From assembly GCF_988243305.1 (NCBI RefSeq), contig NZ_OZ547136.1: DNA of 64,000 nucleotides; one strand, 5' to 3'. Both the position numbers and the translations under genes were made by a program. Position 1 is the stretch's first letter; each line of letters starts with the position of its first letter. Below the pieces are notes generated by a model. The model was not told the DNA's origin. It saw nothing but the letters and a program-made list of their open reading frames with translations, and made no database searches. Of the stretch, positions 36,830 to 36,969 are shown in pieces.

Positions 36830-36850
36830 AATCGGGATAGTAATCTAAAT

Positions 36851-36955
36851 GATAATGATTGCTAATCCTAGCGATAGGTTTACCCGATAGCAAGGGATTT
36901 CTCTGGCTTGCAAATGATAAAAATTATCATATGATATTGGTTATCATTATCAATG
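36851..36955. promoter_or_regulatory. Fur-box-like repeats in the fhuF / yjjZ divergent promoter region
   Basis: GATAATGATTGCTAATC, AATGATAAAAATTATCAT and GGTTATCATTATCAATG resemble the Fur consensus GATAATGATAATCATTATC. Confidence 0.5.
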
Positions 36956-36969
36956 AAAGAGATGAAACC

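Follow-up and report, generated by a model that had tools for sequence, protein, structure and literature searches.

Does the short gap between the divergent genes fhuF and yjjZ hold genuine Fur operators and, if it does, do its boxes form one operator shared by the two genes or one for each of them? A sequence-only reading of the 64,000-nucleotide stretch of DNA analysed here (hereafter the window) had reported three overlapping Fur-box-like sequences between fhuF and yjjZ, implying iron-dependent co-repression of both. We scored the boxes against shuffled sequence, mapped published Fur footprints and transcription start sites (TSSs) onto the window, and compared the locus across Enterobacteriaceae.

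The fhuF–yjjZ gap and its setting in E. coli

The region at 36830–36969 is exactly the 140-bp non-coding gap between the start codons of fhuF (36829, minus strand) and yjjZ (36970, plus strand), and is 67% A+T. The fhuF ORF (36041–36829, minus strand) encodes a 262-aa ferric-siderophore reductase with Pfam FhuF and FhuF_C matches and is annotated as fhuF in E. coli genomes, and the yjjZ ORF (36970–37206, plus strand) encodes a 78-aa small membrane protein of the DUF1435 family (Pfam DUF1435, E = 7e-37). The segment matches E. coli chromosomes carrying annotated bglJ, fhuF, yjjZ and tRNA-Leu genes. Directly downstream of yjjZ, and convergent with it, are three tandem tRNA genes (37248–37567, minus strand) equivalent to leuV, leuP and leuQ of K-12; some E. 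coli genomes have two tRNA copies, not three, under the match to this segment. An Rfam scan of 36000–37700 at a permissive E-value returned nothing except these three tRNA-Leu genes, and no hidden RNA element.

The 140-bp region was found in 5424 of the 5426 complete E. coli genomes (at least 99% identity in 3435) and is thus a core feature of the species. Alignment with K-12 MG1655 required no indels and gave three intergenic differences in 140 positions (36868, 36901 and 36968), none of them inside the stronger of the two box clusters described below. The intergenic sequence is a normal E. coli allele in which 36868 is the only noteworthy variant: C in the window and A in K-12, it changes the putative fhuF −10 hexamer from the TATGAT of K-12 to TAGGAT. 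Most other genera share TAGGAT, no other difference from K-12 looks functional, and K-12 itself may carry a promoter-up variant. The window also carries the hpa operon, which is missing from K-12 and present in 2072 of the 5426 complete genomes, and so comes from a non-K-12 strain. Across 36000–37300 and 21400–22600 the top identity to any of the 5426 was ~99.2–99.3%, which suggests that none of them is a very close relative of the source strain, at least in these two segments.

Fur-box clusters, footprints and promoters

Fur boxes were scored against the 19-bp consensus GATAATGATAATCATTATC and the 7-1-7 motif TGATAATnATTATCA, used in place of the 24-site weight matrix of Chen et al. (2007). 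With up to three mismatches allowed, GATAATGATAATCATTATC occurs in the 64-kb window only at 36933–36951 (0.00 expected from 100 shuffles). This 19-mer (17/19) and that at 36910–36928 (15/19) are the two best of ~64,000 positions, and for TGATAATnATTATCA the top three of the whole window lie at 36915–36929 (13/14), 36932–36946 (12/14) and 36938–36952 (12/14); a fourth 7-1-7 match in the region, at 36850–36864, scores 11/14. Across the window 88 19-mers score at least 12/19, and eight of these fall inside the 140-bp gap, against an expectation of ~0.2. When the 140 bp were shuffled with dinucleotides preserved, a 17/19 match arose in none of 5000 shuffles and eight 19-mers of at least 12/19 in two. 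Site starts are, moreover, offset by 3 or 6 bp (36910/36913/36916, 36927/36933/36939, 36845/36851 and, for the 7-1-7 motif, 36932/36938), the signature described for Fur clusters by Chen et al. (2007; PMC2189734). The boxes reported between the two genes are thus real, and three of them do overlap, beside yjjZ; what did not stand is that all of them overlap, since a second, weaker cluster lies ~45 bp off.

Weak Fur matches of 13–14/19 also occur elsewhere in the window. The AT-rich region between the divergent hpaR and hpaG (21953–22040) has three weak 14/19 matches to the consensus and a near-palindrome, TTAATCATTAATATGTTAATGATTA, and an isolated 14/19 match, GATAATGAGAATCCATTTG (34064–34082), lies in the yjjP–yjjQ intergenic segment ~580 bp upstream of the yjjQ start.

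The strong cluster, with three overlapping Fur sites (36910–36952), adjoins yjjZ and covers its −35, −10 and TSS. The −35 hexamer TTGCAA (36908–36913, plus strand; CTGACA in most other genera) was located by a promoter scan and agrees with Schmidt et al. (2023), and the −10 hexamer TATGAT (36930–36935, plus strand), from the same scan, does not vary at five positions among 21 sequences and is at least 90% conserved at the remaining one. The TSS at 36943 (plus strand) is that of Schmidt et al. (2023), K-12 4,605,777, mapped via the yjjZ ATG (K-12 4605804 = 36970). Between the two hexamers lies the 13/14 site TGATAAAAATTATCA (36915–36929), to which the 15/19 19-mer at 36910–36928 corresponds. 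The other two sites, 6 bp apart, form a block (36932–36952) over the −10 and TSS, and the 17/19 19-mer falls within it.

The weak cluster adjoins fhuF at ~36845–36869 and covers the −10 and TSS of that gene. Its best 7-1-7 match (36850–36864) includes a perfect TGATAAT half-site (36850–36856), and the 19-mers starting at 36845 and 36851, again 6 bp apart, score 12/19. From these scores and cross-genus conservation we place the conserved core of the fhuF-proximal Fur box, AATCTAAATGATAATGATT, at 36842–36860. The TSS pair at 36859–36860 (minus strand) was mapped from the Figure 5 legend of Chen et al. (2007; K-12 4603717/4603716). The putative −10 hexamer TAGGAT (36865–36870, minus strand) is 5–6 nt upstream of this published TSS, and a 17-nt spacer separates it from a putative −35 hexamer, TTGCTA (36888–36893, minus strand), read from the sequence. 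Positions 1, 2, 5 and 6 of the −10 are invariant across genera, as is the TTGC of the −35 (GCAA at 36890–36893). With 14 bp between the −35 hexamers of fhuF and yjjZ, the two promoters stand back to back.

Both computed clusters coincide with DNase I footprints that Chen et al. (2007; PMC2189734) obtained with Mn2+-Fur at the same locus in E. coli K-12, one of high and one of low affinity, and which we mapped to the window by an offset that agreed with both start codons and with the indel-free alignment. The high-affinity region, their 'fhuF1' (K-12 4603763–4603815), was both footprinted and gel-shifted and maps to 36906–36958; the strongest published Fur site, K-12 4603779, maps to 36922, the centre of the best 7-1-7 match. 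The low-affinity region, their 'fhuF2' (K-12 4603680–4603733; DNase I footprint), maps to 36823–36876. One of the two clusters was described as having two weaker sites, scored at 14.6 and 9.3 bits, and both clusters were treated as part of the fhuF promoter (Chen et al., 2007). The high-affinity footprint reaches from −37 to +16 at the yjjZ promoter, and we infer that it is the yjjZ operator; the low-affinity footprint covers the −10, TSS, 5′ UTR and start codon of fhuF and would be the fhuF operator.

Inside the strong cluster there is also a minus-strand promoter-like match pointing to fhuF, TTGATA-16-TATGAT (36953–36926, 10/12). It lacks TSS support, conservation of its −35 half stops at Escherichia, and the match more probably arises from the palindromic boxes than from a second fhuF promoter. 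Were it active, a longer fhuF transcript would also come under the strong cluster.

The further claim, iron-dependent co-repression of fhuF and yjjZ, is borne out by published footprints, core-regulon membership and fur deletion data, all on the near-identical K-12 sequence. Across nine E. coli strains, both genes belong to the core Fur regulon as defined by ChIP-exo plus expression (Gao et al., 2023), and the locus is within the published direct Fur regulon of CFT073. yjjZ is derepressed in a fur deletion mutant (Gao et al., 2023; Schmidt et al., 2023), its sigma-70 promoter being silent in the wild type and giving transcripts only when fur is deleted or in vitro (Schmidt et al., 2023). Two Fur sites at the yjjZ TSS are recorded in EcoCyc, as cited by Schmidt et al. 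(2023), and Banerjee et al. are cited among the evidence for Fur regulation of yjjZ. In Salmonella the yjjZ promoter is iron-repressed and the gene iron- and Fur-regulated, according to published work. For fhuF, the reporter of the Fur titration assay is itself an fhuF::lacZ fusion, repressed by iron and Fur. The checks that the sequence-only reading had proposed, a Fur titration assay or EMSA and expression under iron limitation, are thus already in the literature, both with positive results. The Fur operators of this region are already known, footprinted and curated.

One operator or two: conservation of each box with its gene

We scanned one genome per species and found fhuF loci in 80 species of Enterobacteriaceae, with yjjZ near fhuF in 77. 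The two genes are directly adjacent in only ten of these 77 loci, with gaps of 140–166 bp: four in Escherichia, four in Leclercia and two in Silvania. In the other 67, which include Citrobacter, Salmonella, Enterobacter, Klebsiella, Kosakonia and Kluyvera, the start codons are ~1.4 kb apart. The gap in Salmonella enterica subsp. arizonae (L023:1316–2380) holds a 354-aa GGDEF diguanylate cyclase gene, co-oriented with fhuF and divergent from yjjZ; the GGDEF gene was identified in this locus, and in the other 66 (among L006–L081) the gap length was measured. The Salmonella, Citrobacter, Enterobacter and Klebsiella loci thus have the same two genes, conserved Fur boxes and promoter hexamers for each gene as E. 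coli, but the Salmonella-type arrangement differs in the gene between yjjZ and fhuF, so that the operators are not adjacent.

Each box is strongly conserved beside its gene. Upstream of fhuF, 21 sequences from 18 genera show no variation at 17 of the 19 bases in the AATCTAAATGATAATGATT block (36842–36860) and at least 90% conservation at the other two, and 73 of the 80 species carry the exact 14-mer AAATGATAATGATT no more than 100 nt upstream of the gene. Upstream of yjjZ, the exact 24-mer CATATGATATTGGTTATCATTATC (36928–36951) is present in 55 of the 77 species, usually 18 nt from the ATG, and in the 18-genus alignment this block and the yjjZ −10 are near-invariant amid flanks that vary. In the 67 separated loci, the best Fur score was 12–14/19 upstream of fhuF versus 15–18/19 upstream of yjjZ. 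That each box is kept with its own gene where the genes are apart points to the strong cluster as the yjjZ operator and the weak one as that of fhuF. The footprints historically called 'fhuF promoter' would then have lain 1.4 kb apart ancestrally, and appear, judging from these alignments, to be two gene-specific operators that are neighbours only in Escherichia, Leclercia and Silvania. Since the three-gene arrangement is so widely distributed, adjacency in Escherichia would, by parsimony, most likely have arisen through loss of the GGDEF gene. Two gene-specific operators rather than a shared one, as the comparison suggests, are in no conflict with iron co-repression.

At fepA–fes, a single Fur-protected region is described as covering overlapping divergent promoters. 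Like fhuF–yjjZ, the divergent enterobactin regions fepA–fes, fepB–entC and fepD–entS have short bidirectional gaps, overlapping Fur-box arrays on core promoters and iron co-repression (footprints in Table 3 of Chen et al., 2007). Here, however, two footprints of unequal affinity lie ~30 bp apart, one per promoter, and instead of one contiguous protected region over both core promoters we find 36823–36876 and 36906–36958 as separate entities. This bears on a reading we regard as unlikely, in which both genes rely on the strong three-box cluster as their main Fur operator and the fhuF-proximal box is a secondary extension of Fur polymerisation. The core promoters are, indeed, just 14 bp apart, a consensus search picks out the strong cluster only, and Chen et al. 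(2007) name both clusters fhuF promoter, giving −93 as the position of the fhuF Fur site in the strong one. Yet the strong cluster, at −46 to −98, lies upstream of the −35 of fhuF and so cannot directly occlude the fhuF promoter, the weak region is a separate footprint and no extension of the strong one, and in 67 species fhuF is 1.4 kb from the strong cluster and has the proximal box only, with its 17 of 19 invariant bases.

The two operators could nonetheless interact in E. coli. The centres of the strong- and weak-cluster sites are roughly 60–90 bp apart, and the strong cluster, just 46–98 bp from the fhuF TSS on its upstream side, could strengthen repression of fhuF via cooperative binding or looping. 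A rewiring of Escherichia fhuF by the GGDEF loss, whereby the strong cluster would favour Fur loading at the weak operator of fhuF (through cooperative polymerisation or looping) or would repress the upstream promoter-like sequence at 36953–36926, seems to us rather improbable, and the evidence is neutral towards it.

We give little credence to the idea that the conserved fhuF-proximal block is mainly the site of another regulator, with OxyR as the candidate, and that Fur binds there weakly and incidentally. Repression of fhuF by oxidised OxyR has been reported (Zheng et al., 2001), conserved GATA(G) and CTATAG elements flank the box, and its match to the Fur consensus is just 12/19. But Fur protects this region in vitro and regulates fhuF in vivo, the perfect TGATAAT half-site marks the invariant core AAATGATAATGATT as Fur-box sequence in its own right, and one site might serve both regulators. 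Finally, that AT-rich promoter DNA merely resembles Fur boxes by chance, with no regulatory role, might be argued from the 67% A+T, the likeness of Fur boxes to −10 and −35 elements and the weak 13–14/19 matches elsewhere in the window, but has next to no probability given the 17/19 match in none of 5000 composition-matched shuffles, near-invariance across 18 genera and published footprints and regulon data. AT-richness was ruled out as the explanation by whole-window and local dinucleotide shuffles together with the published footprints and expression data.

Fur repression at back-to-back promoters

What we favour, with high confidence, is classical Fur repression of fhuF and yjjZ from two back-to-back sigma-70 promoters, each under its own Fur-box array. 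Under iron sufficiency, Fe2+-Fur dimers would fill the overlapping boxes of 36906–36958, over the −35, −10 and TSS of yjjZ, and would also bind the weaker array of 36823–36876, over the −10, TSS and leader of fhuF. RNA polymerase would be shut out at both promoters, presumably by promoter occlusion, with each cluster acting mainly on the adjacent gene. Upon iron limitation Fur would leave the DNA and both genes would be transcribed; because its operator is weaker, fhuF would be released at higher Fur activity than yjjZ, which would be tightly held. Others had established that Fur binds both regions, where the TSSs lie and that fur deletion or iron limitation relieves the repression; the present analysis adds that the boxes are statistically significant, that they coincide exactly with promoter elements and that each is deeply conserved with its own gene. 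A consensus match beyond chance, clustering at 3- and 6-bp offsets, overlap with core promoters and TSSs, and conservation relative to the flanks were all found here as for a Fur operator, and nothing that we found contradicts Fur repression.

As a textbook Fur target, the locus carries little weight beyond correct annotation and the point that genuine operators can be recognised from sequence alone. A modest addition is that the 'fhuF promoter' footprints appear to be two gene-specific operators brought together in Escherichia, Leclercia and Silvania. fhuF has been described as unusually sensitive to Fur titration, and a weak operator of its own would fit this sensitivity. Should the rewiring considered above prove true, the iron threshold of fhuF in E. 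coli would differ from that of its Salmonella or Enterobacter orthologues.
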